Shown here in pieces: positions 223 to 20,464 of a DNA stretch of 24,000 nt. Numbering within the stretch: position 1 is the first letter of the stretch; every line of letters begins with the position of its first letter. The stretch covers positions 14,949 to 38,948 of the forward strand of contig JAEUMP010000012.1 of the NCBI GenBank assembly GCA_016791445.1, given 5' to 3'. A program made the translations under genes and the position numbers. Below the pieces are notes generated by a model. The model was given only the letters and a program-made list of their open reading frames with translations. It had not been told where the DNA came from and ran no database searches. This stretch comes from Hyphomonadaceae bacterium. GTDB taxonomy: Bacteria; Pseudomonadota; Alphaproteobacteria; Caulobacterales; Aquidulcibacteraceae.

Positions 223-386
223 AGCCCGGGCATTTCGCCGTCATCCGCGCGGACCGCAGCGCGAGGCCCGGGCGTCGCGAAAATAATTCAGTCTCCCGCT
301 GCGGGGTTTTGCCGGCCCGTTTGTCTTTCCCCCTGAACGGCGCGCGCCAAGGCGCCGACAGACACCGCGTTGGGGAGACACACACC

Positions 387-3300: not shown

Positions 3301-3578
3301 CCGGCGCGCTCAACTACACCGACGACTATCTCGATACGCTGAGCACGCCCGCACGACGCATCGACGCCTGGCGCACGTGGGATGTCCAGATCGCACGCAC
3401 ATGGCGCGCCGATGCCGACAATGGGCAAAAGCCCGGCGTCGAGGCCACACTCAATGTCCGTAACATCACCGACGCCGATCCGCCCTTCGCCAACAATCCC
3501 GTCGGCATGGCGTTCGATACGCTCAACGCCTCGCCGCTCGGACGCTTTGTGTCTTTCGAGATCCGACGCCGATGGTGA
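387..3578 (+). CDS. TonB-dependent outer-membrane receptor/transducer with an N-terminal STN signalling domain (FecA/FpvA-like)
   Basis: The ORF-track frame 309-3578 begins at a TTG; I prefer the ATG at 387 (MKHADKG...), which has GGGGAG 9 nt upstream. A signal-like AALAACLAAALPAAAAAQA is followed by an STN-like segment (LVAFDIAPQPLAAALSDFARQAGVPALFAYGDV...GRFTREEALERLTAGLGL). Then come an Ala/Gly/Ser/Pro linker, a plug domain (DEVVVTGTRIRG...IEATGRTSIQDVLQTLP, RVEVLADGASATYGSDAVGGVVNIILR) and a long beta-barrel ending in an aromatic residue (...FEIRRRW). Confidence 0.9.
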   Translation: MKHADKGPRHGRACDARRQKSRNGDRDADARGARRRHAALAACLAAALPAAAAAQARDGATPDAASADRARTLVAFDIAPQPLAAALSDFARQAGVPALFAYGDVAQTRANGVHGRFTREEALERLTAGLGLSARLTSAGLVVDAPSALDPDRSGGDGAARTDGAHTQTSPPSGARAGAPRAEAQSPNAGSASATMGAAAPSMDEVVVTGTRIRGAPPTGSHVVTIDRDAIEATGRTSIQDVLQTLPQAFSGSQNELTQLNSTAGGRNIAFSASVDLRGLGADATLTLVNGRRLAPAGFGNFVDISAVPLAAVDRVEVLADGASATYGSDAVGGVVNIILRRDFNGAETTVRYGAATAGALEEKGLSHVFGATRGRSAFLAGYEYRARDALAASDRAFAADTDLRRFGGSNFSRTNANPGNIIRVGTTVTAFAIPAGQNGITLRQSDLIAGQLNFQNGNEGASLLPAQESHGLFMSARLPLGDRIELFADALGSRRKANASDNQLATTLVVPATNAYRQLNGLFPGTQPITVAYFLGDDLGPLRYATTSDTHAITGGLEIDIARAWRLEATATFGGHSDAVRFSNAFDSTAIAGALASSDPATAFNPFGDGAHTPAAVLRNLTLTQATDSDSDIRAYAIKADGPLFALPAGVVRAAVGAERREEAFAITRVERRASGLLVPAALQAPGERAVSAVFGELYLPLLSAEAGLPLVESLAASLSVRHESSDDFGDATTPKAGVRLDAAGGLSLRGAWGKSFKAPQFVQLLGGTGGTISSAPVSIDPFATNGSTGTLQITGANPNLRPETAETWTLGFDLSPPALKGLTLSATYFDIDFANRISTPGSILDALRNSAAYAGFLIRDPTPEQIAAYLAIPSRTAGTIPPDGIEAIWDERLTNLASLRVRGVDLSGAWRVETSAGAITLAASASKLMEFRRQSNPVVPAINPLDTILNPVDWRGRASLAWSGDHWRLSGALNYTDDYLDTLSTPARRIDAWRTWDVQIARTWRADADNGQKPGVEATLNVRNITDADPPFANNPVGMAFDTLNASPLGRFVSFEIRRRW

Positions 3579-5734
3579 GCGACGCGCGCACGCGCTGTCG
3601 CCTCGCGGTCCTTGCAGGCGCGCTCGCCGCACTCGTCGCCTGCGTCATCGGCGCAGGCGGCGCATGGGCGACCCCGCGCGCGCGCGACGCAAGTCTTGAA
3701 CGCGCACACGCCATGCAACACGCGCTCCTTGCCTTGGTCGATCTGGGCGGGCGCCGACACGGCATGACGCTGTCGCCCGATGGACGCACCATTGCTGTCT
3801 TTCGCCGCACCACACGCCTTCTTGAGAACGACTACCGCTACGAACTCCTGCTCGTCCCCCTCGACACACCCCCGCCCCTCGACAAGGCCCAAGTCACCAC
3901 ACGGGACACGACACCGGCCACGACCCCGGACATGGCGGCGGCGCGCATCCTCGCCGACGCCGGGGACGCCAACCTGCATACTGCAGACGGGCGTCCCTCC
4001 GGCGCGCTCGCCGACCGGATCGCACGCTGGTCCCCGGACGGACGCGAACTCGCCTATCTCGCCCACAGGCAAGACGTCATCTCGCTTGAGCGCGTGCGCA
4101 TCGCCGACGGCGGCGTTCGCGTCGTCGCCACGGGGCCAGGCGACATTGCCGACTTCGCCTGGCTTGCCGACGGCGGTCTCGTCTTTCGCCGCAACACTAC
4201 ACGGATCGCCCAGGCGCGCGCGTGGCGCGACGGCGCCGTCGCCGGCTATCGCGTCGACGATGCGTTCGATCCCGCCTTCAGCCTGAGACCGCAGAGCATC
4301 GCTCGCGGCGATGACGCGGTTTTCGTCGCTGCGCCCGACGGGCGCCTGCGCGCCGCCGCCCCGCACGAGGCCGCACGTCTCGCACCGTCGCCTGCACCTG
4401 CAGGGGCCATCGACAACGCCGCCGACGCGAGGGGGCGCCGCGCATGGCTCGCCCCGCGACATCCGGGCGATCGCGCCTATCGGCCGACGCTTGCGGTCTT
4501 CACAGACCACGAGGGACGCGCCCTCATGTGCGCCGATCCAGCCTGCCAGGGGCGACTGACACGCGTGTGGCGGACGCGCGAGGAAGTCATCTTCCAGAAA
4601 GCGGAAGGGTTCGCCGACGTCGAAACCGCGCTCTATGGCTGGCGTCCCGACAGCGGGCGCGTGCGCCTCATCCGGCGCGCCGACGACCTCCTGAACGATT
4701 GCGCGCTTGCCGCCGCGCGGCTCATCTGTCTTCACGAGGCCGCGCTCTCACCGCGCCGCGTCGTCGCCGTCGCGCTGTCCGACGGCCGGCTTGCCGCGAT
4801 CCACGATCCCAACCCCTCCTGGCGGGGGGCGCCCCTGACCGCCGTCGAGCGTCTCGACGGTCACGACCATCTCGGCAACGCCTTCTTCGCCCGCATCGTG
4901 CGGCCCGCAGGTCACCGGCGCACCGAGCGCTACCCGCTCGTCATCGTGCAATACCGCGCGCGCGGCTTTCTGCGGGCAGGCACGGGCGGCGAATATCCGA
5001 TCCACATGTTCGCGGCCCGCGGCTATCTGGTGGCCAGCATGGATCGCCCGGATCCTCGCACCCTCCACGCCGAGCTGAGCGCCGCCGACCTCTCGCGGCG
5101 CACCGAGTTCGATGGGAGCGAACAGTCAATGAAGCAGTCCGCGCTCGAAACGCTGATCGCGCGCCTTGACGCGCGCGGTCTCATCGATACCGGCCGCATC
5201 GCCATCACCGGCATGAGCGACGGCGCCGAGACCGTCTATTGGGCGCTCACGCGACCGACCGCCTTCGCCGCCGCCGTCACAAGTTCCCCGCCCATCGACC
5301 CGAGCGCCTGGACGCTCAGTTCGGAACGATTCCGTCGCCTGCGGCGCGCCGAGGACGCCGCGAGCGGCGACTGGCCGGATGCAAACCCCGACTGGGCCGC
5401 CTGGTGGGCGCGCAACACCACGACACGACGCGCCGAACACATTGTCACGCCGCTGCTCATGAACCTCTCCGAAAGCGAGGCGCTGCGCGGCTTTCCGCTC
5501 GCCTCGCGCCTCAACGATCTCGGCAAACCGGTCGAGACCTATATCTATCCCGGCGCCTTCCACGCCAAATGGCGCCCGCAGCAGATCCTCGCCGCCCAGA
5601 CACGCGCCCTCGACTGGATCGATTTCTGGCTCCTCGACGCGCTCAACCCCGCTCCCGACGATCCAGGGCGCGCCGGACGCTGGCGCGCCATGCGCGACGA
5701 TCATCGCTCCCGCCTGCCGGGCACGCCGCCCTAG
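3572..5734 (+). CDS. Lasso-peptide isopeptidase candidate (S9 prolyl-oligopeptidase fold, AtxE1/AtxE2-like)
   Basis: The 720-aa product has an N-terminal half typical of a beta-propeller (repeated SPDG/ADGG strands) and a C-terminal alpha/beta-hydrolase. The hydrolase carries a GxSxG nucleophile elbow (ITGMSDGAE), an acidic stretch (PLLMNLSESE) and a His (YPGAFHAKW). The start ATG overlaps the receptor stop (ATGGTGA). The gene lies next to lasso B/C genes and a TonB-dependent receptor, the context known for AtxE-type isopeptidases. The N-terminus MVSDARTRCRLAVLAGALAALVACVIGAGGAWA|T resembles a Sec signal peptide. Confidence 0.75.
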   Translation: MVSDARTRCRLAVLAGALAALVACVIGAGGAWATPRARDASLERAHAMQHALLALVDLGGRRHGMTLSPDGRTIAVFRRTTRLLENDYRYELLLVPLDTPPPLDKAQVTTRDTTPATTPDMAAARILADAGDANLHTADGRPSGALADRIARWSPDGRELAYLAHRQDVISLERVRIADGGVRVVATGPGDIADFAWLADGGLVFRRNTTRIAQARAWRDGAVAGYRVDDAFDPAFSLRPQSIARGDDAVFVAAPDGRLRAAAPHEAARLAPSPAPAGAIDNAADARGRRAWLAPRHPGDRAYRPTLAVFTDHEGRALMCADPACQGRLTRVWRTREEVIFQKAEGFADVETALYGWRPDSGRVRLIRRADDLLNDCALAAARLICLHEAALSPRRVVAVALSDGRLAAIHDPNPSWRGAPLTAVERLDGHDHLGNAFFARIVRPAGHRRTERYPLVIVQYRARGFLRAGTGGEYPIHMFAARGYLVASMDRPDPRTLHAELSAADLSRRTEFDGSEQSMKQSALETLIARLDARGLIDTGRIAITGMSDGAETVYWALTRPTAFAAAVTSSPPIDPSAWTLSSERFRRLRRAEDAASGDWPDANPDWAAWWARNTTTRRAEHIVTPLLMNLSESEALRGFPLASRLNDLGKPVETYIYPGAFHAKWRPQQILAAQTRALDWIDFWLLDALNPAPDDPGRAGRWRAMRDDHRSRLPGTPP

Positions 5735-7560
5735 CCCGACAGCGCCGCGCGTGCGGCCTGTGCCTCGGCGCCGCGCCGCAGCCGCCGCAACCAGAGCTCC
5801 GCGGCAAGATGCACCATCAAGGCGCTGGAGACCGCGCCGTCGCTCACCGTATCGGACGCAAGGAGACGCCGGGCGGTCGCATCATCGAGAAGGCCCAGAC
5901 GCCTGAGCTCGCCGTCGTGCAGCACCGCGCGCATGAAGGCGAGATTGCGCGACACGACAGCTGCGAAGAAGCGCGTGGTCTCACCCTTGGTGGTGCGCGC
6001 CGCCACCGACGGCGAGAGCCGTGATGCAAACGCATCGCGCACCAGGCCGCGCTCACGACCGCCATGGGTCATCACATAGGCCGGGATCGACAGACACGTC
6101 TCGATGACCGGCTGGGACAAAAGCACCGGCGCACTGCGCACGCGCGTATTGAGCACGCCCGGCGCCTGATAGCGCACCGCGTCGAGGAGATGGGCCACAC
6201 GCAGCGCCTGCGCGGGCGGCTGGCGCGCGCCGGTCGCCAGCCAGGGATGACGTTCAAGCGCGTCTCCCGCGCTGGCGCGCGATGATCCGGCGCGCGCGCG
6301 CAAGAGCGGCGCCCGCGCCAGTCCATGAAGCGCTGCGACCCACGCCACCGCCCAGATTGACCGCCCCGTCAGACGCGCAACCGCCTCCACGATCGCGCCG
6401 ACCTCACGCGCCGTCTCGCCCAGCCACACCGCGTCCGCCGCGATCAGCGGCGAACGACTGCGGTGAAAGAGATGGTCCCCCGCCTGCCCCGACGCCACGA
6501 AATCCACCCCAAGACGGTGCGCCGTCTCCAGTAGCGTCGTGTTGGCGAAACCGAGCAGCGAGGTCGTCGGAGAGACGAAAAGCGGCGCCTCCAGCACGCG
6601 CGCATAGTCGACCGCCGCAGGCGTCATCTCCACTTCGATGACCTCCCTGCCCCAACGCGCCGCCGCCGCGCGCGCCATCTGTCGCTCGTCGCCTTCCGGC
6701 ACATCGCGCGCATATTCGTTCACGCAAAGGACCTCGCACGTATCCGGCGCGCCCTCTTGCGCCAGACACGCCAGGACGATGCTGGAATCGAGCCCGCCCG
6801 AGAGACGCACCATGGCGCGCCGCGCGGTTGTCCCCCAGGCGCGCACCGCAAGCGTCACACTTGATGAAAGGCGCATCGCCGCGTCCGCCGCGCTCTCACG
6901 CACGCCGCCCGCGCGCCGCCGCGCGGGCGCGAAATCCTGCGGCCGCCAGAGTGTGTCGCGCGACACCGTCTCGCGTGAGAACGTGAAACGCTCGCCGGGC
7001 TGCACCAGGGTGACGCCCTTAAGCCCCGTGCGTGCGGACGCAACGCCCGGGTCTTTGAGGAACGCCGCCAGATAGGCGCAATCCGGCAAAAGCGCCCCGC
7101 CGAGTGCGGCGAAATCCTCCGCATGCGAGAAGACCACATGCACCGCGCCGATCTGTGCGTAGTGTGCATGACGATGTCCGCTCGGATCGCGCAGCACATG
7201 GACGAGGTCATAGCCCCGGTCGATCAGCACCGCGACAAACCCGCCCCAATAGTCCCTGAAGAGCGCCTCCCCGCCACCCGCGCAGATCCGACCGGTCTCG
7301 CGCGTCTCCATGTCGGTCGCGCGTGCGCCCGTGACGGTGAACAACGCACCGAAGATCGCGCCTCGCCCCTGCGAGAGCGTCAACGCCGCCACATCCTCGG
7401 GCGCTGCGCGCACCAGCAGGAGGACCCCGCGCCAGTCCACGATCACCGACCAGGCGCATGTCTCGCCGGTCGGGCCCGTCAGCGCGTCCGCCATGCGCCG
7501 CGCTTCGGCCTCGCGCACGCGGTCCACAGGCGTCCAGCGCAGGAGGACAAACCGCAGCAC
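5731..7560 (-). CDS. Lasso-peptide cyclase (C protein; asparagine synthetase B-like, isopeptide-bond forming)
   Basis: The 609-aa product carries the PP-loop ATP-pyrophosphatase motif (VRLSGGLDSSIVLACLA) inside an AsnB-like C-terminal domain, with a degenerate N-terminal domain. The GTG start at 7560 lies 9 nt after the B gene stop. An alternative ATG at 7494 cannot be excluded. Confidence 0.85.
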   Translation of the reverse strand: MLRFVLLRWTPVDRVREAEARRMADALTGPTGETCAWSVIVDWRGVLLLVRAAPEDVAALTLSQGRGAIFGALFTVTGARATDMETRETGRICAGGGEALFRDYWGGFVAVLIDRGYDLVHVLRDPSGHRHAHYAQIGAVHVVFSHAEDFAALGGALLPDCAYLAAFLKDPGVASARTGLKGVTLVQPGERFTFSRETVSRDTLWRPQDFAPARRRAGGVRESAADAAMRLSSSVTLAVRAWGTTARRAMVRLSGGLDSSIVLACLAQEGAPDTCEVLCVNEYARDVPEGDERQMARAAAARWGREVIEVEMTPAAVDYARVLEAPLFVSPTTSLLGFANTTLLETAHRLGVDFVASGQAGDHLFHRSRSPLIAADAVWLGETAREVGAIVEAVARLTGRSIWAVAWVAALHGLARAPLLRARAGSSRASAGDALERHPWLATGARQPPAQALRVAHLLDAVRYQAPGVLNTRVRSAPVLLSQPVIETCLSIPAYVMTHGGRERGLVRDAFASRLSPSVAARTTKGETTRFFAAVVSRNLAFMRAVLHDGELRRLGLLDDATARRLLASDTVSDGAVSSALMVHLAAELWLRRLRRGAEAQAARAALSG

Positions 7561-7569
7561 CGGCTCCGC

Positions 7570-8202
7570 TCACACCGACGCCAGCGGCGTGAAGGACCGG
7601 CAATGGTCCAGCGCGTCGTTGATCACCACGCCCGCGCATTGCACCCAGCAGTGCGCCGCAAACGGTCGCGCCCGCACGCCGACAACGAGGTCCGGGCGAT
7701 GGCGCCGCGACACCAAAAAGTGCATCAGCGCGAGCGAATCGAAGAGACACACCCGTCGTGCAGGATACCAAAGCCGCGTCCGGTAGAATTGCGCGACGTC
7801 CGCCGACAGGACCGTGCGGGCGTTGCCCGCACGCCGCTTGCGCCGACCGAGCGCGCGAAACGCCCGCTCGAGATTGCCGCTCTGAAGATCCATCGCTGCG
7901 CGTGCGCACGCCCAAAGGACACGCGCCCCTGAAGCCCGCGACGGCGCTCCTTCCAGCGGCGGTTGTGCATCGTGCGGTCGCTCGATCCTGCGCGCCATCG
8001 CGATCGCGGCGCCTCCGGGCGTCAGAAGGCCTTCCTTGAGGAGGCGGTCGATGAGCGCGCCGCGCGCCGGCCCGGCCGTTTCGGCGAGACGCGCAAGGGG
8101 CGCTGCCCAATACCGGTTGCGGCGCAGATCGAGAAAGAGGAGGCAATCCGCATCGACGCACGCGCGAACATGCGCAGGCAGGCCATAACCATCGATCGAC
8201 AT
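7570..8202 (-). CDS. Lasso-peptide B protein (fused B1 PqqD-like leader-recognition element and B2 transglutaminase-like Cys protease)
   Basis: The 210-aa product has an N-terminal segment (VRACVDADCLLFLDLRRNRYWAAPLARL...IDRLLKEGLL) resembling a PqqD/RRE fold. The C-terminal segment (RVCLFDSLALMHFLVSRRHRPDLVVGVRARPFAAHCWVQCAGVVINDAL) matches the McjB-type Cys...His...Asp core. GGGAG lies 6 nt upstream of the ATG. Confidence 0.85.
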   Translation of the reverse strand: MSIDGYGLPAHVRACVDADCLLFLDLRRNRYWAAPLARLAETAGPARGALIDRLLKEGLLTPGGAAIAMARRIERPHDAQPPLEGAPSRASGARVLWACARAAMDLQSGNLERAFRALGRRKRRAGNARTVLSADVAQFYRTRLWYPARRVCLFDSLALMHFLVSRRHRPDLVVGVRARPFAAHCWVQCAGVVINDALDHCRSFTPLASV

Positions 8203-8252
8203 CTGACGCTCCCAAAATGCGCGATGTGCGTGCGAAACGCTTCCAGCGCCAA

Positions 8253-8280
8253 GGAGACGCGCCGTCGCCGGCGCGCCTCC
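8253..8280 (-). promoter_or_regulatory. GC-rich stem-loop in the A-B intergenic spacer (candidate attenuator or mRNA-stabilising hairpin)
   Basis: On the minus-strand RNA, GGAGGCGCGCC-GGCGAC-GGCGCGUCUCC forms an 11-bp stem (one G-U pair) with a 6-nt loop. It starts 15 nt after the precursor stop codon and has no following U-tract. Confidence 0.5.
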
Positions 8281-8294
8281 CCGTGGCGCGCGCC

Positions 8295-8423
8295 CTATTC
8301 GTCGCGCGCTTCCGGCTCGACATAGTTCTCCTTGAGGATGTCGTCCGGCAGCCCCAGCGTGCGCTCGCTCGCGCGTCCGAGATCGATGACGCCGTCTTCG
8401 ATGGGATCGTGTTGGGCTTGCAT
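8295..8423 (-). CDS. Lasso-peptide precursor (A peptide), 42 aa: MQAQHDPIEDGVIDLGRASERTL|GLPDDILKENYVEPEARDE
   Basis: I hand-translated the minus strand. GGAGG lies 5 nt before the ATG (complement of 8421-8423) and the TAG stop is the complement of 8295-8297. The ORF is too short for the ORF track. It sits directly upstream of B-C on the same strand. Thr is at -2 relative to the predicted core Gly1, and Glu is at core position 9 (ring acceptor). An in-frame alternative ATG at 8435 would add MEVN but has no SD. Confidence 0.8.
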   Translation of the reverse strand: MQAQHDPIEDGVIDLGRASERTLGLPDDILKENYVEPEARDE

Positions 8424-8526
8424 GTTCACCTCCATGGTGCGGCCGCCGTTTGCGGCCACGAACACGATCGCGCCGACCTGCAGTGCTTCCCAGTCAACTC
8501 TGGTGAATGTTTCGTGCGATGTCCGC

Positions 8527-9219
8527 TCAGTCGCCGTTTCCGCCGAGCGCGCGCAGGACGGCGCGCTCGCGCAACAGCTTTGCCGCTTTCACGCGTCTGC
8601 CATGATAGCGTCGCAGCGCCGCCCGCAGCGACGAGGCCGCCCCCTGCCGAAGACGCGCGGCGAGGTCGTCGAGTTCGCGATCGACATCGCCAAAGAGCTC
8701 GGCCTCCGCGCGCCTTGCGGCATGAAGACGGTCATCGGCATTGACGCCCGCGCGCCTGAGTTCAGGATTGGCGCGCCCCTCCACCGATTGCAGGATCGCC
8801 GCCACACGCAACGGATAGCCGGAGTTCGCTTCAACGCCCGTAGCAGCGCCGCCTGCAACGAGGGCGCCCGCTGCAGGCACATCCACGACAGCGTCATTCG
8901 CGATAGCGTCCTTCGCAACCGGGACCGCGTCGGCGTGCGTTGCGAGCGCGCCCGCCGCCAGCCAGGCGCGCCACTCATAGAGCGCGCGCAGTTCACTTTC
9001 GCTCCAGAGCGAAACGAAAAAGCCCCTGCTCGGTCGCGCGGTGATCAGACGTTCCGCAGCGAGCCGCACGAGCGCTTCGCGCACAGGCGTGCTGCTTGCG
9101 CCCAGTCCATCGGCCAGCGCGCCGACATCGAGACGCGCATGCAGGCGATAGTCGCCGGCAAGGAGCCGGCGACGTATCTCGTGATAGACACGATCGCTGA
9201 CAGGCGGATCAGCCGCCAT
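8527..9219 (-). CDS. GntR-family transcriptional regulator
   Basis: The N-terminal wHTH (SDRVYHEIRRRLLAGDYRLHARLDVGALADGLGASSTPVREALVRLAAERLITARPSRGFFV) matches the GntR signature and is followed by a helical effector domain. I prefer the ATG at 9219 (MAADPP...) over the track start at 9264. That start overlaps the stop of the upstream dioxygenase gene by 11 nt. Confidence 0.85.
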   Translation of the reverse strand: MAADPPVSDRVYHEIRRRLLAGDYRLHARLDVGALADGLGASSTPVREALVRLAAERLITARPSRGFFVSLWSESELRALYEWRAWLAAGALATHADAVPVAKDAIANDAVVDVPAAGALVAGGAATGVEANSGYPLRVAAILQSVEGRANPELRRAGVNADDRLHAARRAEAELFGDVDRELDDLAARLRQGAASSLRAALRRYHGRRVKAAKLLRERAVLRALGGNGD

Positions 9220-10174
9220 CCACCGGCTGTGTCTGTGCAGACGCGCCGACCCGATAGTGCGCATCGAGTTCGGCCTGGATGTCCGGCGTCAGCGCGTCGA
9301 TATGGGGCGCGCGTGCGCACGTCTCGCCGAGGGCCGCGATCGGGTCCTGCCCTTCCCAGCCGCCGAGATTGGGACGATGCATCCGGTAGCCGATCAGGCG
9401 CTGCAGTTCCTCGGGAAACGACCGCGCCACGGACGGCGGATAGGCAAGGAACTGGTTTTCATACTGTTTCAGCCAGCCGAGACAGTACGAGACGATGACG
9501 CCCGTGCGCGGGTGCGCCGAGCGGTTGGCGCCGGCGCCATGCGTGAGCGCGCCGATGAAGAGAAGCGCCGAACCGCGCGCCATCGCGCCGGCCACGCTGG
9601 TGTGCGGATCGACCTCGCGGTCGAGCGCCCCGCGATGACTGCCGGGCCAAAGGCGCGTGGCGCCGTTCGCTTCAGTAAAGTCGCTGACCGCCCACATCAC
9701 GTTGAGCAGCCATGGCGTCTCGCCCTTGGGACAGGGCCACATTTCCTCGTCCCGGTGCGGCGCCTGGGCGCGCTCGCCTGGATGCACCTGCACGGCCTGG
9801 GTGAGATTGAGCTGGATGCAGTCGCATGCCGGGGCGAGAAGCGCGTCGGCTATTGCGACAATCACCGGGTGGAGCACGAGCGCGTGCGCCGACGGCGCCT
9901 TGTCGAGAAGTCCCCCGACACGGGTCGTGCGCCAGCCGTAGAAATCGCCCACGCAGCGCGGCGTGGCGGCAAGCCACGGCGCGAGTTCATCGTCGAGGCG
10001 CGCGACATCCTGCGGGTCGATGAGCGCGTCAAGAATGACAAAGCCGTCGCGTCCGAGCGCCGCGAGCGCCGTCTCGACGATCGACTGCAGCTGCGGCGCA
10101 CCGGACGACGTTGCATCGTCCGCTCGGCGGCATGGACCGGTCCCGGCTGGGGTGTTTGCAACAAGAGGGTTCAT
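9209..10174 (-). CDS. Phytanoyl-CoA dioxygenase (PhyH) family Fe(II)/2-oxoglutarate-dependent oxygenase
   Basis: A HxD...H facial triad is visible (QAPHRDEEMW ... GALTHGAGAN), with a downstream Arg (HPRTGVIVSY) and typical PhyH blocks (ANGATRLWPGSH). I prefer the ATG at 10174 (MNPLVAN...), which has GGAG 7 nt upstream, over the track start at 10240. Confidence 0.85.
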   Translation of the reverse strand: MNPLVANTPAGTGPCRRADDATSSGAPQLQSIVETALAALGRDGFVILDALIDPQDVARLDDELAPWLAATPRCVGDFYGWRTTRVGGLLDKAPSAHALVLHPVIVAIADALLAPACDCIQLNLTQAVQVHPGERAQAPHRDEEMWPCPKGETPWLLNVMWAVSDFTEANGATRLWPGSHRGALDREVDPHTSVAGAMARGSALLFIGALTHGAGANRSAHPRTGVIVSYCLGWLKQYENQFLAYPPSVARSFPEELQRLIGYRMHRPNLGGWEGQDPIAALGETCARAPHIDALTPDIQAELDAHYRVGASAQTQPVDGG

Positions 10175-10236
10175 GGAAAATCTCCGTGGTGGGTGGCGTC
10201 GGCATGGATGGGCGCGCCTCGACGCGCCCGCACGGC

Positions 10237-10866
10237 TCACGCCGCCGCCGGCAAGACGGCCGCAGCAAAGCGCGTCATGGGACCAGTGAGGCTGTTGCGT
10301 GCGCGCACGGCGTTCAGCCCCTCCGGGGTGATCGCTGCGGTGATCGCGCGCACGCGTTCACGCCCCATGCGCATTGTCGGTCCAAGCGGCGCTGCGTCCC
10401 AGCCGATCGCCATCGCCAGCGGCGCGAGCGCGGCGCCCGCCACGAAGGTCACACGCTCCATGCCGAAGAGAAGTCCCGTCTCCATGATGCCGGCGATCAT
10501 GCGCGCCAGGAGCGCCTGACGCGGCGCGCCCTTGGCGATCTGCGGCGCAGGACAAAAGCGCGACACTTCCCAGATCCGCGCCCCGCGCGGCACGCCCGTC
10601 ACGCACAGATGCGCAAACACCTCGCTCATGAGATGCGCCCGCGCCGTCGGCAGGAGACGCACCGAACCGGTGACGGCGCCGTCGTGCGCCGCCGTCTCCA
10701 CGAGATAGACCGCATCGGCGGCGTCGAACTGGTCGATCTCAAGCCCCTGCGGCGCCTCAAGTCCCCAGCGCATGCGATCGATGAAAACCGACTTGCGATG
10801 GCGGTGCATCTCCATCAGCGCGTGCCGGAAGAGATGGCGATTGTCTTCGGTGATGATGTGGATCAT
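10237..10866 (-). CDS. Acyl-homoserine-lactone synthase (LuxI family)
   Basis: The 209-aa product shows conserved LuxI blocks: FRHALMEMHRHRKSVFIDRMRWGL, EIDQFD, GSVRLLPT and IWEVSRF. GGAG lies 5 nt upstream of the ATG. Confidence 0.9.
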   Translation of the reverse strand: MIHIITEDNRHLFRHALMEMHRHRKSVFIDRMRWGLEAPQGLEIDQFDAADAVYLVETAAHDGAVTGSVRLLPTARAHLMSEVFAHLCVTGVPRGARIWEVSRFCPAPQIAKGAPRQALLARMIAGIMETGLLFGMERVTFVAGAALAPLAMAIGWDAAPLGPTMRMGRERVRAITAAITPEGLNAVRARNSLTGPMTRFAAAVLPAAA

Positions 10867-10922
10867 GGGCGCTCCGTCGAAAGCCGCCGGAGCATGGGCC
10901 GCCCGTCGCGCGCCGCGATATG

Positions 10923-10936
10923 GGTCCCACAGGACC
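10923..10936. promoter_or_regulatory. 14-bp palindrome GGTCC-CACA-GGACC in the luxR-luxI spacer (candidate operator)
   Basis: This is a perfect 5-bp inverted repeat with a 4-bp spacer, centred about 63 nt upstream of the luxI ATG. It lies in a locally AT-richer patch that also contains TTGTCA on the coding strand. Confidence 0.3.
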
Positions 10937-10956
10937 TCTTGACAAATTTTCCGTGT

Positions 10957-11694
10957 CTAATCCGCCAGATCGTCAATGCGGATCTGGCCGTCGAGCACGG
11001 CGCGCACGACTGCCTGCACCCTGAACGCCACGCCGTAGCGCTTCTTGGCGCGCTCGATGGTGTTGTGGACGGTGCGCTCATGAATGCCCAGCATCCGCCC
11101 GATGACCCAGTCGCTCTTGCCTGCGCCCGCAAGCGCCAGACACTCGCGCTCGCGCGCGCTCAGTGCGGGGCGCAATGCGTGCGCGCCGTCGTCGAGCAAG
11201 GCCCGCGCGCGCTCGTGCGCATAGACCGCCATGAGGAAGACGGCCGGCACCTGAAGGGGATCGACGCCGTCGGGCCCGGGCACCAGCGAACACGAGGCAG
11301 GTAAGGCGCCCGGAGAATGGATGGGGATGGTCAGGCCGTTGGCGAGCCCGATCGCGGCCGCGTCCTGGAGAATGTCGCGCTGCAGACGCGTGAGACGGCG
11401 CCCCTTGAGCACGTCGTCCCAGAAGAACGGCACAGCACTCGTTCGCGCCGCCATGAAGACGGGGTCGTGCGCGGCGTAGTTTTCCGCAGAGAACCGCGCC
11501 AGCCACGCCGCCGGATAATTGATCATGTTCACCGCACCGGGCGGGGGGCGCAACGGATCGACGTGCGAACAACACGCCACATAGGCAAAGCCCATCGCCG
11601 CCATGTCGGCGAACAGGACGTCGCGCACCGCGTCTGCGCTCGCCGCGGCGCGGCACTTCTCCATGAACTCGATCGCGACCCGGCTGGACGGCAT
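10957..11694 (-). CDS. LuxR-family acyl-HSL-responsive transcriptional regulator
   Basis: The N-terminal autoinducer-binding-like domain (GFAYVACCSHVD...YPAAWLARFSAENYAAHDPVF...PFFWDD) is followed by a C-terminal LuxR HTH (LSARERECLALAGAGKSDWVIGRMLGIHERTVHNTIERAKKRYGV). I prefer the ATG at 11694 (MPSSRV), which has GGAG 5 nt upstream, over the TTG at 11796. Confidence 0.9.
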   Translation of the reverse strand: MPSSRVAIEFMEKCRAAASADAVRDVLFADMAAMGFAYVACCSHVDPLRPPPGAVNMINYPAAWLARFSAENYAAHDPVFMAARTSAVPFFWDDVLKGRRLTRLQRDILQDAAAIGLANGLTIPIHSPGALPASCSLVPGPDGVDPLQVPAVFLMAVYAHERARALLDDGAHALRPALSARERECLALAGAGKSDWVIGRMLGIHERTVHNTIERAKKRYGVAFRVQAVVRAVLDGQIRIDDLAD

Positions 11695-11795
11695 GCGTGC
11701 TCCACTGCCGCGCCCCGTCTTGCATTCACACAATCGCGACGCCGGGACGCGGATTGACTGCGCCTCAAGTCGCTGCGGGCGCGCAGTGCAGGACA

Positions 11796-11813
11796 ATGGG
11801 CAAAACTGCCCAT
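11796..11813. promoter_or_regulatory. 18-bp tra-box/lux-box-like palindrome ATGGGCA-AAAC-TGCCCAT
   Basis: This is a perfect 7-bp inverted repeat with a 4-bp spacer. It matches the Agrobacterium TraR tra box ATGTGCAGATCTGCACAT (recalled from memory) at 14 of 18 positions. Its centre is about 110 nt upstream of the luxR ATG. Confidence 0.4.
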
Positions 11814-12307
11814 CGATGGCTCACAACTTCGCATAGTCGTTCACCTTGGCGCGATCTCGTCAGGAATTGCGCACGCGTTTCGGCGAAGCGCGTCTCCTGA
11901 CGCGCGACGCGTCCTTCTGCTGCTGCAAGAGTGCATCCATGTTCGATGGAGGCGGTGTCGGAATGAGCGCGCCGAGCGCCTCCTCGCAGCGCAGGGCCAT
12001 CGCCGCCCTCATCGGATGACCAAAGGTCGACTGCCTCTCAGGACTCATGCCGCTGTCACGCGCGCAGCCCCATGCCGGCACGACGCGCCGCCTCGCTGTG
12101 CGACCAGTTCTCGCCGACGCGGCGGCGCCTGATCGCCACGCCCAATGCAGCGAACAATTCCGGCGCAGTCTTCAACATCGGCCATATATGGCGCATTGAA
12201 CGTCGCAAACCACGTCAATACGCCAAAGATGGCCAATTCCAACACCGCCATCGGAGCGTGCGAACTTCGCGCCCGCGCCCAGCGGATCGGCCCGAACTTT
12301 GATCGCT

Positions 12308-13648
12308 TCAACGCGCTTGTGCGTCCTGCGCCGCCACCGCGCGCGCGAAGGCGCCGAGGCCCGACCAAAGCACCAGAGCCGACAACGGCAGCGCGCACGC
12401 CGCAACGATCGCCATCGCGTATCGCAACATCGCGTCGTCGCGGAACAGGAAGTCGTTCAGCGCGGCGACCGCCATCGGCCCCAGTCCGAGACCGATCAGG
12501 TTCGCCATGAAGAAATAGAGCGCCGTCACCTGCCCCCGAAACGCATTGGGCGTGATCAACTGCAGGGCGGCCCCGGCGACGCCGCCGTGCATGGACGACA
12601 ACAGCACCGCCGGCGCCAGGAGCGCAAAGGCGCCCACAGGGCTCGCCATGAGGGGCGCTGCGACAAAGAAAGGCGCCGACGACGCCACCGCTATGATGAC
12701 GGCGATGAGGTGTCCCGATCGCAGGCCCTTGCGGAACAACAGATCTGCCAGCACACCCCCGAGGATCAAGCCAGCAGCCCCGCCCGCCGCCATGATCACG
12801 CCGAAGATCATGCCGGCGTCAGCCGGCGCCATACCATAGGTGCGGGCAAAGAAGGTCGGGTACCACGCGAGCCCGCCATAGATGACGAAGGTCAGCAACG
12901 ACAGGCCGAGAAAGTGTCCGCCATACGCGCGCCAGCGCGCGCCGACATAAGCAAAGACAGCGCCGAATTTTTCCGCACGCACGCCCTCGCCGCCACGACG
13001 CGCCGGCTCGCGCACGCTCAGCATCAACAGCGCCACCAGAAGTCCAGGCAGACCGACCATGAAGAATACAAGCCGCCAGGGCTCCGTCTCGCCGAGCACA
13101 GGCAATACCGGCGCTGGCGACTGCGTGGCGAATTTGACGACTAGGCCGCCGACGATCAAAGCAATGCCCGATCCCAGCGGCACGCCGATCGAATAGACCG
13201 CCATCGCGCGACCGAGACGGTGCTTCGGGAAGTAGTCGCTCAGCATCGAATAGGCGGCCGGCGACAACGCGGCCTCTCCGACGCCGACGCCCAATCGCGC
13301 CAGGAAGAGTGCGGCATAGGTCGGCGCCAGACCGCACAGCGCCGTCATCACGCTCCAGAAGGCGATGCCGATGCTGATGATCCGCTGGCGGTTGGCGCGG
13401 TCGGCCAGATACCCGAGCGGCAATCCCATCAGCGTATAGAAAGCGGCAAACGCCAGACCATGAAGAATGCTGAATTCGAAGTCAGATATCTGCAGATCCG
13501 CGCGTATCGGCGCCACCAGCAGACTGAGGATCATCCGGTCGATGAAAGAAACCGTGTAGGCCACAAGCAGCACCGCCACAGCCCACCAGGCAAGCGTCGG
13601 CGCAGGCCACGGCGCCTCGCCGCGAGCGGGATCGGTGTGCGTGTCCAT
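12308..13648 (-). CDS. Major facilitator superfamily (MFS) transporter
   Basis: The 446-aa product is polytopic and hydrophobic, with about 12 hydrophobic segments. It carries the MFS loop 2-3 motif (GLPLGYLADRANRQR) and ARLGVGVGEAALSPAA. Confidence 0.9.
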   Translation of the reverse strand: MDTHTDPARGEAPWPAPTLAWWAVAVLLVAYTVSFIDRMILSLLVAPIRADLQISDFEFSILHGLAFAAFYTLMGLPLGYLADRANRQRIISIGIAFWSVMTALCGLAPTYAALFLARLGVGVGEAALSPAAYSMLSDYFPKHRLGRAMAVYSIGVPLGSGIALIVGGLVVKFATQSPAPVLPVLGETEPWRLVFFMVGLPGLLVALLMLSVREPARRGGEGVRAEKFGAVFAYVGARWRAYGGHFLGLSLLTFVIYGGLAWYPTFFARTYGMAPADAGMIFGVIMAAGGAAGLILGGVLADLLFRKGLRSGHLIAVIIAVASSAPFFVAAPLMASPVGAFALLAPAVLLSSMHGGVAGAALQLITPNAFRGQVTALYFFMANLIGLGLGPMAVAALNDFLFRDDAMLRYAMAIVAACALPLSALVLWSGLGAFARAVAAQDAQAR

Positions 13649-13659
13649 GGGCAGTCGCC

Positions 13660-14166
13660 TCAGCAGATTTCAAAGATGGTGTAGCGGACGCCGGCGCCGG
13701 TCCTTCGTCCCAATCCGATCGCCACGGTCCGGTTCAGCCACCCATAGCGCGGGTCGGCCGTCTCAAAGACCGGGGTCACGCGAAAATAATAGCGCTGCGG
13801 ATCCAGGCATTCGACTTCGTCTGGATTCCGGAACACGCCGAGCACGTCCTTCGGTATGACCAGTCTCCCCTGATAGGTCACATAGATGTCCGCATCATCA
13901 TGCGTGCGCCACAGCGACCGCACGTCGATCAGCGTCAGCGCGTCGCCTGCCTCGTCCACGCCAAGTTCCGACCAGTCTCCGCCGCCCGCACACACCACGC
14001 CGCGCACCCGGTCGCCGGTCACGGTCCCCCCGCCGATGTAACTCACGCGCCGGTTGCGCCACGGCGATCGGCCCAGCGCGATCGGCGCATCCTTTTCCAG
14101 CGTAATGTCGGCGACACACAGCGGGCGCGTGATCACCGCTCCAAAATCCTCGATTGCTGTCGTCAT
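13660..14166 (-). CDS. DUF3237-like beta-barrel protein of unknown function
   Basis: Using the ATG at 14166 (MTTAIEDFG...; GGAG upstream) gives 168 aa. The pattern SYIGGGTVTGDRVRGVVCAGGGDWSEL...DVRSLWRTHDDADIYVTYQGR...FRVTPVFET resembles the DUF3237 family. The stop is 11 nt from the MFS start, so the two are probably co-transcribed. Confidence 0.55.
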   Translation of the reverse strand: MTTAIEDFGAVITRPLCVADITLEKDAPIALGRSPWRNRRVSYIGGGTVTGDRVRGVVCAGGGDWSELGVDEAGDALTLIDVRSLWRTHDDADIYVTYQGRLVIPKDVLGVFRNPDEVECLDPQRYYFRVTPVFETADPRYGWLNRTVAIGLGRRTGAGVRYTIFEIC

Positions 14167-14450
14167 GCGTCTGGTCTCCAGCCCTTTGTATGTCGCGCCG
14201 CCTACGGCGCGCTCACGCCACGCCTGCATCTTTGACTTCACTTCCTGAGTTGCATCTTGCCCCGATCTGCGTGGCTGATGCCGCCCCGCCCCGGCTGTTC
14301 GCTCCTGCCCTTCACCCCCGCACTCCACCGCACTTCACCCCGGCGCGTCTCTGCCGAGCCTCGCCGCTGACCTGCGCCCCGCGCGCCAGGCCGCTCACGC
14401 CCCGGTCGCGCGCGTACGAGCGCGCCATATCGCCTGCCGGACGCCCCGCA

Positions 14451-14594: not shown

Positions 14595-16778
14595 ATGTCG
14601 CGATCCCTTCTGAAACAAGGCGGCTCGCTCGCCGCCCTGTCTTGTGTCCTCGCCTTCGGACTGGCCGGGCCAGCCCACGCACAGCAGGAAGGCACAGCCA
14701 TCGACCCCATCGTGGTGACAGCACAAAAGGTCGAACAGGACCTGCAGGATGTCCCGATCGCCATTACCGCGTTCTCCGCAGAACAACTGCGCGTGAACCG
14801 CGCCGACAGCGTGCTCGACGTCGCACAACGCACGCCCGGATTCACCTCGACTGAAGTCAACCCTGCCGAACCCAACTACGTCATTCGCGGCATCGGCACC
14901 GAAGGCATCAACTCCAACGCAGGCGGTGACGCCTCGGTCGTCATGTTCATCGACGGCGTCTACATCGGCCGCGGCGGCGGCTCGAACCTTGAACTCTTCG
15001 ATCTGGCGCGCGTGGAAGTCCTGCGCGGACCGCAAGGCACGCTCTTCGGCAAGAATGTCGTCGGCGGCGCGATTTCGCTGGTCTCGCGACGCCCCGATGC
15101 AGAACCGTTCGTCGAACTCTCCGCCGGCGCAGGCAACTACGACCGTCGTGAGTTCCGGGCACGCTTCAATCAACCGCTCTCCGACAACGTCTTCGCATCA
15201 GGCGCCTTCTCCATGCGCCAGCGCAGCGGCTATTCCTTCAACCAGACGACCGGCAATGACGTCGACGATGAAGACACCTACGGCTTCCGGGGATCGCTCC
15301 GCTACAAGCCGAGCGACAAGTTCGATGTCGTGGTGACTGCCGACTATTCCAAGCAGGACCAGAACGGCCAGGTCCGCGACAATGTCTGCGACGCCACCTT
15401 CAATGGCGGCGTGCACTGCGTCGGCGTCAACCCGGACCCGCGCATCACGAACGCCATCGTCGACGGCTTTTTGCGGCGCGAAGTGAGCGGCATCCTCGCC
15501 GACGTGACCTGGAATACGAATTTTGGCGTCGTCAGCTCGCTGACCGCCTATCGCAAGGCCGACTTCGATTTCCAGGACCCCTTCTTCTCCAACCCGGTCA
15601 ATCCGCCGACACAGATCGAGTCCATCAACCGCAATATCGAATCCTCCAGCCAGTTCAGCCAGGAGCTGCGCCTTGCGTGGAGCGCGCTGAATGAACGCCT
15701 CACCGGCGTCGTGGGCGGCTACTTCCTGCACGAGGACATTGAGCGCGACGAACAACTCGACCAGCGGTTCCCGGCGCCCGCGCAGACCGGATACGGCTCG
15801 TTTCCCCAAGACGTTGAGGCGCGATCGACGGCTCTCTTCGGGCAAGCGACGCTCGCTGTGACCGACCGGCTCGATGTGACGCTCGGCGCGCGTATGACGT
15901 GGGAAGAAAAGGACGCGCACCTGCAGGCGATCAGGCGCGCGGGTCCAGGCTGGCCCCCGCCGATGGCCGAGGAATACAATGTCCGTGCAAGCAAGAGCTG
16001 GGATGCATTCACGCCCCGCGCCGCGGTGACCTATAAGGCCTCCGATGACGTGCTGCTCTATGTCAGCGCCGCGCGCGGCTTCAAGAGCGGCGGCTTCCAG
16101 GGCACCGCAGGCACGGCCGCCAGCGCCGCCGTCGCCTACAATCCCGAATTCGCGTGGACCTACGAGCTGGGCATCAAATCGCAGTGGCTCGACAACTCCC
16201 TTCGGCTCAACGTCGCGGCCTTCCAGACCAACCACACCGATCTGCAGATCTCCCAGCTTGTCCCCTTGTGCTGCGTCGTCATCGGCAATGCGGCGGAGGC
16301 CGAGATCCGCGGCGTGGAAGCCGAACTTCTCTGGCGCCCTGTGCGCGGCCTCGACTTCAACGGATCCTACACCTACCTCGACGCGACATTCGTGGACTTC
16401 GCCACCGGCGCCACAGCGAATTTCACCGGCAACACGCTGCCACGATCGCCGGAACACAAATTCAACGCCGGCGCCCAGTATCGCTGGTCGCTCGGCGAGA
16501 GCGGCGGCGCATTCATCCGGGCGGACTACACCTACCAGACCGACTATTTCCTCGAAGCGTCCAACACGCCGCTGGAAGTCCAGGACGGCTATGGGATCGT
16601 CGATGCACGCGCGGCCTATGAAAGCCCCTCAGGCGCCTGGGAGGTCGCGCTCTGGGGCAAGAACCTCACCGACGAACTCGTCGCCACGCACATGACTGCG
16701 TTCGCGCCCTTCCGCCAACAGCTCAACATCTATCAGCCGCCGCGCACCTTCGGCGTGAGCCTCACCTTCCGGAACTGA
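14595..16778 (+). CDS. TonB-dependent outer-membrane receptor (no STN domain)
   Basis: GGGAGG lies upstream of the ATG. A signal peptide (LAALSCVLAFGLAGPAHA|QQ) is followed by a TonB-box/plug region (DPIVVTAQKVEQDLQDVPIAITAF, RVEVLRGPQGTLFGKNVVGGAISLVSRRP) and a barrel with a typical C-terminal strand (PRTFGVSLTFRN). Confidence 0.9.
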   Translation: MSRSLLKQGGSLAALSCVLAFGLAGPAHAQQEGTAIDPIVVTAQKVEQDLQDVPIAITAFSAEQLRVNRADSVLDVAQRTPGFTSTEVNPAEPNYVIRGIGTEGINSNAGGDASVVMFIDGVYIGRGGGSNLELFDLARVEVLRGPQGTLFGKNVVGGAISLVSRRPDAEPFVELSAGAGNYDRREFRARFNQPLSDNVFASGAFSMRQRSGYSFNQTTGNDVDDEDTYGFRGSLRYKPSDKFDVVVTADYSKQDQNGQVRDNVCDATFNGGVHCVGVNPDPRITNAIVDGFLRREVSGILADVTWNTNFGVVSSLTAYRKADFDFQDPFFSNPVNPPTQIESINRNIESSSQFSQELRLAWSALNERLTGVVGGYFLHEDIERDEQLDQRFPAPAQTGYGSFPQDVEARSTALFGQATLAVTDRLDVTLGARMTWEEKDAHLQAIRRAGPGWPPPMAEEYNVRASKSWDAFTPRAAVTYKASDDVLLYVSAARGFKSGGFQGTAGTAASAAVAYNPEFAWTYELGIKSQWLDNSLRLNVAAFQTNHTDLQISQLVPLCCVVIGNAAEAEIRGVEAELLWRPVRGLDFNGSYTYLDATFVDFATGATANFTGNTLPRSPEHKFNAGAQYRWSLGESGGAFIRADYTYQTDYFLEASNTPLEVQDGYGIVDARAAYESPSGAWEVALWGKNLTDELVATHMTAFAPFRQQLNIYQPPRTFGVSLTFRN

Positions 16779-17391: not shown

Positions 17392-17769
17392 ATGATTACT
17401 ATGAGTTCGCCGAAATCGAGATCAGCCCTTGCCCAGATGGGGAAGGATTTGCGCGCCGCACGGCTACGCCGCCAGATAACGGCGGTAGATCTCGCCGCAC
17501 GCGCTGGAACCTCTCCGAACACAGTTGCGAGGCTGGAAAAGGGGGATTCAGGGGTCGCAATTGGGACCCTGGCCGACGTGCTGGTCGCGCTCGGGCTCAT
17601 CGCGCGGCTGGGCGACCTTGTGGACATTCGCAAGGACGAGCTTGGTCTTGCCCTCACCGTTGAGCGCATGCCGCGACGCGCGCGCGCGCCCAGAACGCGC
17701 GGCAAAGCAAAAGAGGGAGCGACCCGGACGACGCCGGGCGCCTCGGACCCTGACGGCGCGGCATTCTGA
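17392..17769 (+). CDS. hipB: XRE-family HTH antitoxin (HipB-like)
   Basis: The HTH ITAVDLAARAGTSPNTVARLEKGDSGVAIGTLADVLVALGL is followed by a basic disordered tail. The stop overlaps the hipA start (TGATG). An alternative ATG at 17401 is possible. Confidence 0.8.
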   Translation: MITMSSPKSRSALAQMGKDLRAARLRRQITAVDLAARAGTSPNTVARLEKGDSGVAIGTLADVLVALGLIARLGDLVDIRKDELGLALTVERMPRRARAPRTRGKAKEGATRTTPGASDPDGAAF

Positions 17770-19708: not shown

Positions 19709-20455
19709 GTGAGCCGCATCTCAACGGGCAACGAGCCGACGCTGCGACAGCTCCGCAGCGTCGCGGTCCTCGCCGATCTCTTCGAAGAAGATCTCGAGGA
19801 AGTCGCCCGCACGGTGTCCTATCTGCGCGCGTTCGCCGGCCAGAACGTCGTCTCCCATCTCGAGCGCTCCTCCAGCTTCTTCCTGGTGCTTGAAGGCCAG
19901 GTGCGGGTCCGCATGGCGTCTGCGGCCGGGCGCAATGTCGCCTTCCGACTGATCGGCGCAGGCGGGCACTTCGGTGAAATCGCCGCGCTGACCGGTGCGC
20001 CGCGCATCGCAAGCGTCGTCGCCGATACGCCGTGCCTGCTTGCCGAGATGACCGCGCCGCAGTTTCTGGACTTCATCGCGCGCCGCCCGACCGCGAGCCT
20101 CAGACTTCTGCAGTCGATGGCGCGCAACATCGTCGTCCTGACCGATCGCGTCTTTGAGCTGTCTACCTATGAACTGCGCGCGCGGCTTTGCGCGGAGCTC
20201 CTGCGCCTCGCGCGCGACGCCCCGTTGACAGACGGCGTCATCGCGATCGATCCCGCCCCTTCCCATGCCGAACTCGCCGACATGCTCGGCGCGCTGCGCG
20301 AAGGCGTGTCGCGCGAATTTCGCGTGCTCGCGCGCATGGGGCTTGTGCGCACCGGCCGACGCCACATCGCCGTGCTCGACATCGCGCGCATGCGCACCAT
20401 CGTGGAAAACGAAGGCGGGATCACCGCCACACAGCTTGTCGACTGGAATGTCTGA
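19709..20455 (+). CDS. Crp/Fnr-family transcriptional regulator (cNMP-binding domain plus HTH)
   Basis: The cNMP-binding beta-roll (FFLVLEGQVRVRMASAAGRNVAFRLIGAGGHFGEIAALTGAPRIASVVA) is followed by a C-terminal HTH (SHAELADMLGALREGVSREFRVLARMGLV). The start is a GTG at 19709. Confidence 0.85.
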   Translation: MSRISTGNEPTLRQLRSVAVLADLFEEDLEEVARTVSYLRAFAGQNVVSHLERSSSFFLVLEGQVRVRMASAAGRNVAFRLIGAGGHFGEIAALTGAPRIASVVADTPCLLAEMTAPQFLDFIARRPTASLRLLQSMARNIVVLTDRVFELSTYELRARLCAELLRLARDAPLTDGVIAIDPAPSHAELADMLGALREGVSREFRVLARMGLVRTGRRHIAVLDIARMRTIVENEGGITATQLVDWNV

Positions 20456-20464
20456 GGCGCGCAC

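Follow-up and report, generated by a model that had tools for sequence, protein, structure and literature searches.

The phyH gene and its neighbors

The analyzed window is a stretch of 24,000 nucleotides (nt) from a Hyphomonadaceae bacterium (assembly GCA_016791445.1, contig JAEUMP010000012.1, positions 14,949 to 38,948), and its minus strand harbors the gene phyH (9209-10174), which encodes a PhyH-family Fe(II)/2-oxoglutarate (2OG) oxygenase of 321 amino acids (aa). phyH lies between two genes for quorum sensing by acyl-homoserine lactone (AHL), luxR and luxI, and a gene cluster for a lasso peptide, and we are confident that it belongs, as the third gene, to a quorum-sensing cassette, luxR-luxI-phyH, that is portable. 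Open reading frames are plentiful in the window, because its G+C content is about 68%; the phyH frame is a real gene. Its start, as read in the sequence, is the ATG at 10174 with a GGAGA 6 nt upstream, its stop is the TGA at 9211-9209, and the 321-aa product is also given by independent gene calls on three public contigs. A longer frame of 343 aa begins at the GTG at 10240 and would overlap the luxI stop as GTGA (10237-10240), a -4 junction that is seen in several related loci when starts are assigned heuristically; within the window, the ATG with its GGAGA is the better start. At the other end, the phyH stop overlaps the ATG of gntR (9219-9217) by 11 nt in the sequence. The gene caller favors a gntR ATG at 9264, by which the overlap grows to 56 nt, hence the two genes overlap under either start. 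Among related loci, again with heuristic starts, a spacing of -11 occurs in 21, and 50 of 60 phyH-gntR junctions fall between -26 and +2 nt.

The PhyH protein matches the Pfam profile PF05721 with E = 2.6e-28 and 100.2 bits (cut-off 22) over profile positions 3-212 of 213, has 2836 homologs at E <= 1e-10, and is found in identical form in one Hyphomonadaceae metagenome-assembled genome (MAG) at NCBI. The HxD...H triad (H140, D142, and H212) and R223 do not vary among 16 sequences of close homologs, and in a wider set of 63 sequences, distant plasmid copies included, they are conserved to at least 90%; R223 is presumably the basic residue for the C5 carboxylate of 2OG. The triad aligns with the HRD...HGAG of PrhA and SwnH2, and the stretch NGATRLWPGSH with the corresponding residues of the same two enzymes. 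An AlphaFold (AF2) model, with a mean predicted local distance difference test score of 75 and a core above 90, displays the double-stranded beta-helix fold. Foldseek searches with this model retrieved AndA, TlxJ, SptF, and FtmOx1 at E of about 1e-19 to 1e-20, with a template modeling score (TM-score) of up to 0.77, as well as DhiD, AsqJ, and PrhA, and the same set was recovered by comparing the PhyH sequence profile with solved structures (E down to 1e-28), together with SwnH1/2. All of the nearest solved structures are small-molecule oxygenases that act on small lipophilic natural products. Judged by these features, phyH apparently encodes an active Fe(II)/2OG oxygenase with an intact catalytic site.

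The cassette begins with luxR (10957-11694, minus strand), which encodes an AHL-responsive regulator (Pfam Autoind_bind, E = 1.9e-31, and GerE); its ATG was read at 11694, and the resulting length of 245 aa is also called on public contigs. It is followed by luxI (10237-10866, minus strand), which encodes an AHL synthase of 209 aa (Pfam Autoind_synth, E = 2e-20) and ends 62 nt before the start of phyH. Between luxR and luxI lies an imperfect palindrome of 20 bp that resembles a lux box (AGAGGTCCTGTGGGACCCAT, 10920-10939, minus strand), some 55-75 nt before the ATG of luxI. The closest solved structures to LuxI are 6wns, RpaI (6wn0), BjaI (5w8a), and TofI. RpaI and BjaI, which are acyl-CoA-using synthases, are slightly favored in the structure comparison, yet TofI scores about equally well, so that no conclusion on the substrate class of LuxI follows.

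Downstream of phyH, all parts of an isopeptidase-type lasso cluster are present by Pfam matches and gene order. The junction of cassette and lasso module is formed by gntR (8527-9219, minus strand; Pfam GntR, E = 1.1e-16), followed on the same strand by the gene for precursor A (8295-8435), which was found by reading the sequence and encodes 46 aa, namely the leader MEVNMQAQHDPIEDGVIDLGRASERTL and the predicted core GLPDDILKENYVEPEARDE. Homologs of the leader (..DLGAASExT) and cores that start with G1 are present in related loci. The window has this one precursor gene (8295-8435), and the gntR-B intergenic regions of most of the related loci L001-L068 hold two tandem precursors with different cores. 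A stable, GC-rich hairpin lies between A and B (8203-8294, minus strand; folding of 8195-8300 gives -54.4 kcal/mol, z = -2.6), and it could, as an attenuator, determine how much A is made relative to B and C. B (7570-8202, minus strand; Pfam Transglut_core3, E = 2.9e-17) is a transglutaminase-like leader peptidase and C (5731-7560, minus strand; Pfam Asn_synthase, E = 5.1e-23) an asparagine synthetase-like cyclase. Divergent from the end of C, the plus strand encodes an S9-family peptidase that stands where the lasso isopeptidase is expected (3572-5734; Pfam Peptidase_S9), at a position that is kept in related loci, and a TonB-dependent receptor (309-3578; Pfam Plug and TonB_dep_Rec_b-barrel), whose start codon is uncertain and for which the gene call on a public contig gives 1063 aa. 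A GntR gene ahead of the precursor is known from isopeptidase-type lasso clusters, the architecture of which is as in the window (PMC9266682). A pair of extracytoplasmic function (ECF) sigma and anti-sigma factors by the TonB receptor was seen neither in the window nor in its source contig, and a Steroidobacter relative has both. The preliminary description of this DNA, made from the sequence alone, had already named the family of PhyH, its 11-nt overlap with gntR, its place in one co-directional gene string with A, B, and C, and the residues D4, D5, N10, and D18 of the predicted core, and on all of these it was right.

phyH, luxI and the lasso module across genomes

Related loci were collected from one genome per species, which gave 80 loci with PhyH homologs of 54-73% identity, from Hyphomonadaceae, Terricaulis and Vitreimonas MAGs, Steroidobacteraceae, and Sphingomonadales, and their gene content was established by mapping the window proteins with tblastn. 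Every one of the 80 loci has luxI immediately ahead of phyH, in the same orientation, and one or two luxR genes before luxI. Thirteen loci are truncated, leaving 67 that are informative on the lasso genes. The full arrangement of GntR, precursor, B, C, and the isopeptidase-receptor pair follows phyH in 50 of these; in 7 others the lasso genes are 3-9 kb away from phyH, which still adjoins luxI there, and the remaining 10, whose downstream DNA spans at least 4 kb in each case, showed no lasso genes, 2 of them retaining GntR.

Several loci are rearranged, and phyH adjoins luxI in every one of them. Within the lasso-linked PhyH clade, two loci (L034 and L079) retain luxR-luxI-phyH-gntR with no lasso genes detected within 10 kb. 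In Steroidobacter gossypii (L077:11899-19986), one of the loci with distant lasso genes, luxR-luxI-phyH-gntR is followed by two genes for ECF sigma factors and three for FecR, and beyond these by a TonB receptor gene and by lasso C in reversed orientation; a cultured gammaproteobacterium thus has the same combined cluster in rearranged form. On a Sphingomonadales chromosome (L069:10917-14530), lasso B and C are separated from phyH by a second LuxR-like gene, which stands in place of GntR. Separate luxR-luxI-phyH loci, two or three per genome and mostly with lasso modules, are present in 13 MAGs (e.g., L022, L031, and L056 in CAZZFE01, and L015, L035, and L041 in CAYUOC01).

A tblastn search for more distant homologs of PhyH (44-50% identity over 82-95% of the protein) hit 70 plasmid records, among them many of conjugative plasmids, with Sphingobium, Sphingomonas, Novosphingobium, Variovorax, Hydrogenophaga, and others as hosts. 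These matches are annotated as phytanoyl-CoA dioxygenase, and many adjoin an annotated AHL synthase. Four plasmid regions were inspected (Sphingomonas, Sphingobium, Variovorax, and Methylocystis), none of which has lasso genes near phyH and three of which contain luxR-luxI-phyH. On the Sphingomonas and Sphingobium plasmids the order is luxR-luxR-luxI-phyH, followed by virB genes for type IV secretion; on the Variovorax plasmid luxI and phyH of luxR-luxI-phyH overlap by 4 nt; on the Methylocystis plasmid phyH is present and no luxI is annotated. LuxI itself, searched against plasmids by tblastn, is 30-36% identical to PhyH-linked and PhyH-free synthases alike, so that a PhyH-specific clade of LuxI is not definable. 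Across alpha-, beta-, and gammaproteobacteria, phyH follows luxI within a few tens of nt, and the genes downstream vary (type IV secretion, lasso, and others), which ties phyH to the synthase and not to any one pathway. The luxR-luxI-phyH synteny has already been published for Sphingomonadaceae, with the reaction of the enzyme called unknown, and a GntR gene after phyH has been noted at one locus of N. subterraneum (PMC3704786, PMC4288048, PMC5012321). In strain DSM 12447 of this species the novI3-phyH-gntR locus is NJ75_4146; N. subterraneum is also the native source of the lasso peptide subterisin, for which an NMR and MS structure is published.

The lasso-linked loci also reveal which genes evolve together. 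Pairwise identities of eight proteins were compared over 741 pairs among the 50 lasso-linked loci (Pearson r). PhyH correlates with LuxR at r = 0.92 and with LuxI at r = 0.88, with GntR at r = 0.64, and with LasB, LasC, the isopeptidase, or the TonB receptor at r = 0.36-0.40 (0.36-0.37 for LasB and LasC). The latter four correlate among themselves at r = 0.91-0.96 and the cassette proteins among themselves at r = 0.88-0.92, and between cassette proteins and these four r is 0.33-0.43. Single pairs of loci exemplify both directions of exchange. L012 and L013 are 96% identical in LuxR, 92% in LuxI, and 94% in PhyH, and 40% in GntR, 31% in LasB, 34% in LasC, and 39% in the isopeptidase; for L015 and L018 the values are 63, 65, and 73% for LuxR, LuxI, and PhyH, and 96, 94, 91, and 90% for GntR, LasB, LasC, and the isopeptidase. 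Where PhyH identity reaches 85% or more (98 locus pairs), LasC is below 50% in 68 pairs and LuxI below 70% in none, and near-identical PhyH proteins are attached to precursor cores of unrelated families (e.g., GIYDPVKKENLVTPQARDF and GERLEQSIEALTVPDKYDVG). GntR marks the junction, as it tracks the cassette in some pairs (L001 versus L004: GntR 87%, LasC 36%) and the lasso module in others. On these sequence comparisons, luxR, luxI, and phyH are inherited and recombine as one unit, and the cassette and the lasso module (B, C, isopeptidase, and TonB receptor) have been shuffled many times among L001-L080, with breakpoints on either side of gntR.

In a neighbor-joining tree of PhyH, the lasso-free plasmid sequences are basal, followed by a grade of gammaproteobacterial and sphingomonad sequences of mixed state, a lasso-free Hyphomonadaceae subclade, and a large lasso-linked clade. 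The lasso-linked clade is hence derived, and it includes two cases in which the lasso genes were lost and phyH was kept. A comparison of lasso-linked with lasso-free PhyH for fixed residue differences returned no discordant column, and 72 conserved columns are common to both. The preliminary description had proposed PhyH as a candidate tailoring hydroxylase of the lasso peptide and had named, as an observation that would speak against this, a PhyH gene that travels with luxI and luxR independently of lasso genes. Exactly this is observed in the linkage to luxI in 80 of 80 loci, in the 10 lasso-free loci, and on plasmids, and the proposal was not borne out, as PhyH segregates and co-evolves with LuxR and LuxI and not with the lasso genes. 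The co-occurrence of PhyH with lasso genes in related genomes, to which the preliminary description had also pointed, holds for 57 of the 67 informative loci and fails for the other 10 and for the four plasmid regions.

Lux boxes and transcription

The palindrome upstream of luxI, AGAGGTCCTGTGGGACCCAT, occurs in a single copy in the window, for a chance expectation of 0.08. Most related loci likewise have a 20-bp palindrome, placed 70-80 nt ahead of the ATG of luxI, with arms that co-vary from one system to another (ATAGGCACGTCCGTGCCTAT, ATAGGCCTGATCAGGCCTAT, ATGGGCCGATCGGCCCAT, and ATAGGTCCCGTGGGACCAAT). LuxR probably binds this palindrome. A scan of 7400-12400 for intrinsic terminators returned one terminator-like site, on the opposite strand, and none on the gene strand from luxI to the lasso genes. 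Co-transcription of luxI and phyH in dependence on quorum sensing is thereby supported indirectly, by the conserved palindrome and by the lack of a terminator-like site on the gene strand, and transcription probably reads through into gntR and possibly into the lasso genes.

One related locus (L058) carries a second, perfect copy of its lux box (ATACCCCTGATCAGGGGTAT, L058:13053-13072), about 110 nt upstream of a lasso precursor gene (L058:13162-13263). An ABC exporter gene (11143-12906) separates luxI-phyH from the lasso operon in this locus, and that operon has no GntR gene. As far as can be read from its sequence, the second lux box supports a control of the lasso genes by LuxR regardless of the position of phyH; L058 is the sole case, as no second lux box was found in the other loci with distant lasso genes. 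Because lux-box variants and precursor families differ among the loci of one MAG, the existence of several parallel quorum-sensing channels per genome is suggested. No report of a link between lasso peptides and quorum sensing, including the fusion of the cassette to isopeptidase-type lasso clusters, was found in the searchable literature.

In the window itself, the sole candidate for a second lux box is a site with three mismatches at 14728, which lies inside the coding sequence of a second TonB-dependent receptor and was taken as chance. This receptor belongs to the genes beyond luxR, where an MFS transporter and a DUF3237 protein are encoded first and the receptor thereafter (12308-14328, minus strand, and 14595-16778, plus strand), and all three genes also flank the cassette on public contigs. 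Further along the plus strand (17401-19001 and 19709-22486) are genes for a HipA-type toxin kinase and then for a Crp-family regulator and an amine oxidase-like flavoprotein; the kinase gene is preceded by a helix-turn-helix (HipB-like) gene of 122 aa, which is called on a public contig.

Role of PhyH and comparison with known systems

Taken as a whole, we consider it probable that a portable cassette with an AHL-related PhyH is docked on a lasso cluster in the window. LuxR would bind the palindrome upstream of luxI, and transcription from the luxI promoter would take in luxI and phyH, then gntR by way of the translational coupling, and perhaps the lasso genes as well. PhyH would be an active Fe(II)/2OG oxygenase for a small lipophilic substrate, most likely either the AHL made by LuxI or its acyl precursor, which it would hydroxylate or otherwise oxidize, and not the lasso peptide. 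In this lineage, repeated recombination at the phyH/gntR junction would have joined the cassette to isopeptidase-type lasso clusters, and once docked it would place lasso production under the influence of quorum sensing; the docking as such suggests that the lasso peptides are under quorum-sensing control. The identity of the substrate is the less secure part, and we see about an even chance that it is an AHL or its acyl precursor. An AHL-related substrate is inferred because the synthase is the only constant neighbor of phyH across alpha-, beta-, and gammaproteobacteria. Action on the acyl-homoserine lactone of the adjacent LuxI had been the fallback of the preliminary description, and it is the linkage evidence that favors it, the step from linkage to the substrate itself being ours.

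Several points weigh against this explanation. Lasso genes are adjacent or nearby in most of the informative loci, and phyH is tightly coupled to gntR. A scan of 7400-12400 for sigma-70 promoters returned no promoter-like site, and, with the only terminator-like site on the opposite strand, the scans do not delimit the operon, so that the extent of the transcript is deduced. On the function of luxI-linked PhyH, our literature search found only the synteny papers and no biochemical data, and Gan et al. (2016) call its reaction 'yet-to-be described'. The sphingomonad LuxI homolog NovI alone makes C8, 3-OH-C8, and 3-OH-C10 AHLs; PhyH is thus not needed for AHL synthesis, and its substrate could be something else under quorum-sensing control. 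Lastly, the leader motif of the lasso precursors is conserved, and a leader-dependent tailoring enzyme could therefore tolerate diverse cores.

The same linkage evidence would also accommodate a turnover of the signal, in which PhyH oxidizes the AHL of its own cell to inactivate it, as negative feedback or reset, rather than to make a new signal. LuxI homologs do make active AHLs without PhyH, and PhyH is much better conserved than LuxI toward the plasmid homologs (44-50% versus 30-36% identity), which fits a common chemistry on different AHLs; a quencher directly after the synthase in the same operon would be unusual, however. We regard turnover as an unlikely, if serious, alternative. Of similarly low probability is an enzyme unrelated to both signal and peptide, with phyH simply as the first of the targets in the luxI operon and some other small metabolite as substrate. 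The closest homologs indeed act on varied secondary metabolites, and Hao et al. (2010), in the part cited by Gan et al. (2013), proposed for phyH only a regulation by quorum sensing, but such a target gene would hardly follow luxI invariably in alpha-, beta-, and gammaproteobacteria while the genes downstream differ.

Very improbable, finally, is the beta-hydroxylation of Asp or Asn of the lasso precursor by PhyH, with recognition through the conserved leader as for CanE: the coupling of phyH to gntR and its common direction with A, B, and C, the lasso genes adjacent in 50 and nearby in 7 more of the 67 informative loci, the conserved leader (..DLGAASExT.G), the many cores with Asp near the C-terminus, and the precedent of CanE for Fe/2OG hydroxylation of a lasso precursor (PMC9266682) are set against a phyH that remains with luxI where lasso genes are absent or displaced, that co-evolves with LuxR and LuxI and not with lasso genes, and that has lasso-free lineages at the base of its tree, no fixed sequence difference between lasso-linked and lasso-free forms, and small molecules as the substrates of its closest solved relatives. 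The small probability that we leave to lasso tailoring reflects the possible tolerance of a leader-dependent enzyme for diverse cores and the presence of lasso genes in most loci of the clade. The Asp near the C-terminus of many cores has a parallel in astexin-type peptides, which also end in Asp and come from clusters without PhyH; this was counted against tailoring. As a lead to a lasso hydroxylase, phyH is poor and should be deprioritized.

Returning to the docked cassette with an AHL-related PhyH, a more far-reaching version can be offered tentatively. PhyH would produce an oxidized, non-canonical AHL, and the lasso genes would be controlled through the gntR overlap or, as in L058, through a second lux box; peptides, receptor, and isopeptidase would then serve as density-dependent public goods or secondary signals, with orthogonal lux-box channels coexisting in one genome. 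The data set, of more than 80 loci plus about 70 records of plasmids, shows the luxI-linked PhyH constantly paired with the AHL synthase in alpha-, beta-, and gammaproteobacteria, and this fixed partnership makes the orphan reaction of PhyH a well-defined and tractable target. The pairing of luxI and phyH was already known, and the Hyphomonadaceae are a new instance of it. The quorum-sensing cassette is recurrently fused to isopeptidase-type lasso clusters, and a control by quorum sensing, if true, would be a concrete and testable clue to the natural role and the regulation of the peptides. For the combined cluster, the cultured Steroidobacter gossypii (L077) could serve as an experimental system.

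Among enzymes, SwnH1/H2, TlxJ, DhiD, PrhA, AndA, AusE, SptF, FtmOx1, and AsqJ have the fold, the HxD...H triad, and the motif NGATRLxPGSH in common with PhyH (TM-score 0.6-0.77), but they are only 22-28% identical to it, mostly fungal, and active on unrelated substrates such as meroterpenoids and alkaloids, and say nothing specific on the substrate of PhyH. The human peroxisomal phytanoyl-CoA 2-hydroxylase (PHYH) belongs to the same Pfam family, yet its structure (2a1x) gives a marginal profile match to the PhyH of the window (E = 5e-3), over a stretch of 36 residues only. An orthology of the two was rejected on this ground, and the family name "PhyH" accordingly gives no substrate. CanE of Streptomyces canus is an Fe/2OG beta-hydroxylase for Asp of a lasso peptide and is encoded beside the lasso genes (PMC9266682). 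It resembles the PhyH of the window as an Fe(II)/2OG enzyme whose gene adjoins lasso genes; compared by description, CanE belongs to its lasso cluster and has the B1 protein as a helper, whereas PhyH segregates with luxI and occurs without lasso genes. PhyH was considered as a CanE-like tailoring enzyme and rejected on both co-occurrence and co-evolution.

Among gene clusters, the downstream module of the window has the same parts as the astexin-type (isopeptidase-containing) lasso clusters, the published architecture of which, unlike that of the window, is without luxR-luxI-phyH. The cassette is matched by the luxR-luxI-phyH of Sphingomonadaceae ('topology T'; Hao et al., 2010; Gan et al., 2013, 2015, 2016) in gene order, orientation, and the short spacing between luxI and phyH, and some loci have a double luxR. 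The PhyH homologs of the sphingomonad type are 44-50% identical to that of the window. The cassette differs from 'topology T' in that it is found in Hyphomonadaceae, is not followed by type IV secretion genes, and overlaps the GntR gene of an isopeptidase-type lasso cluster.

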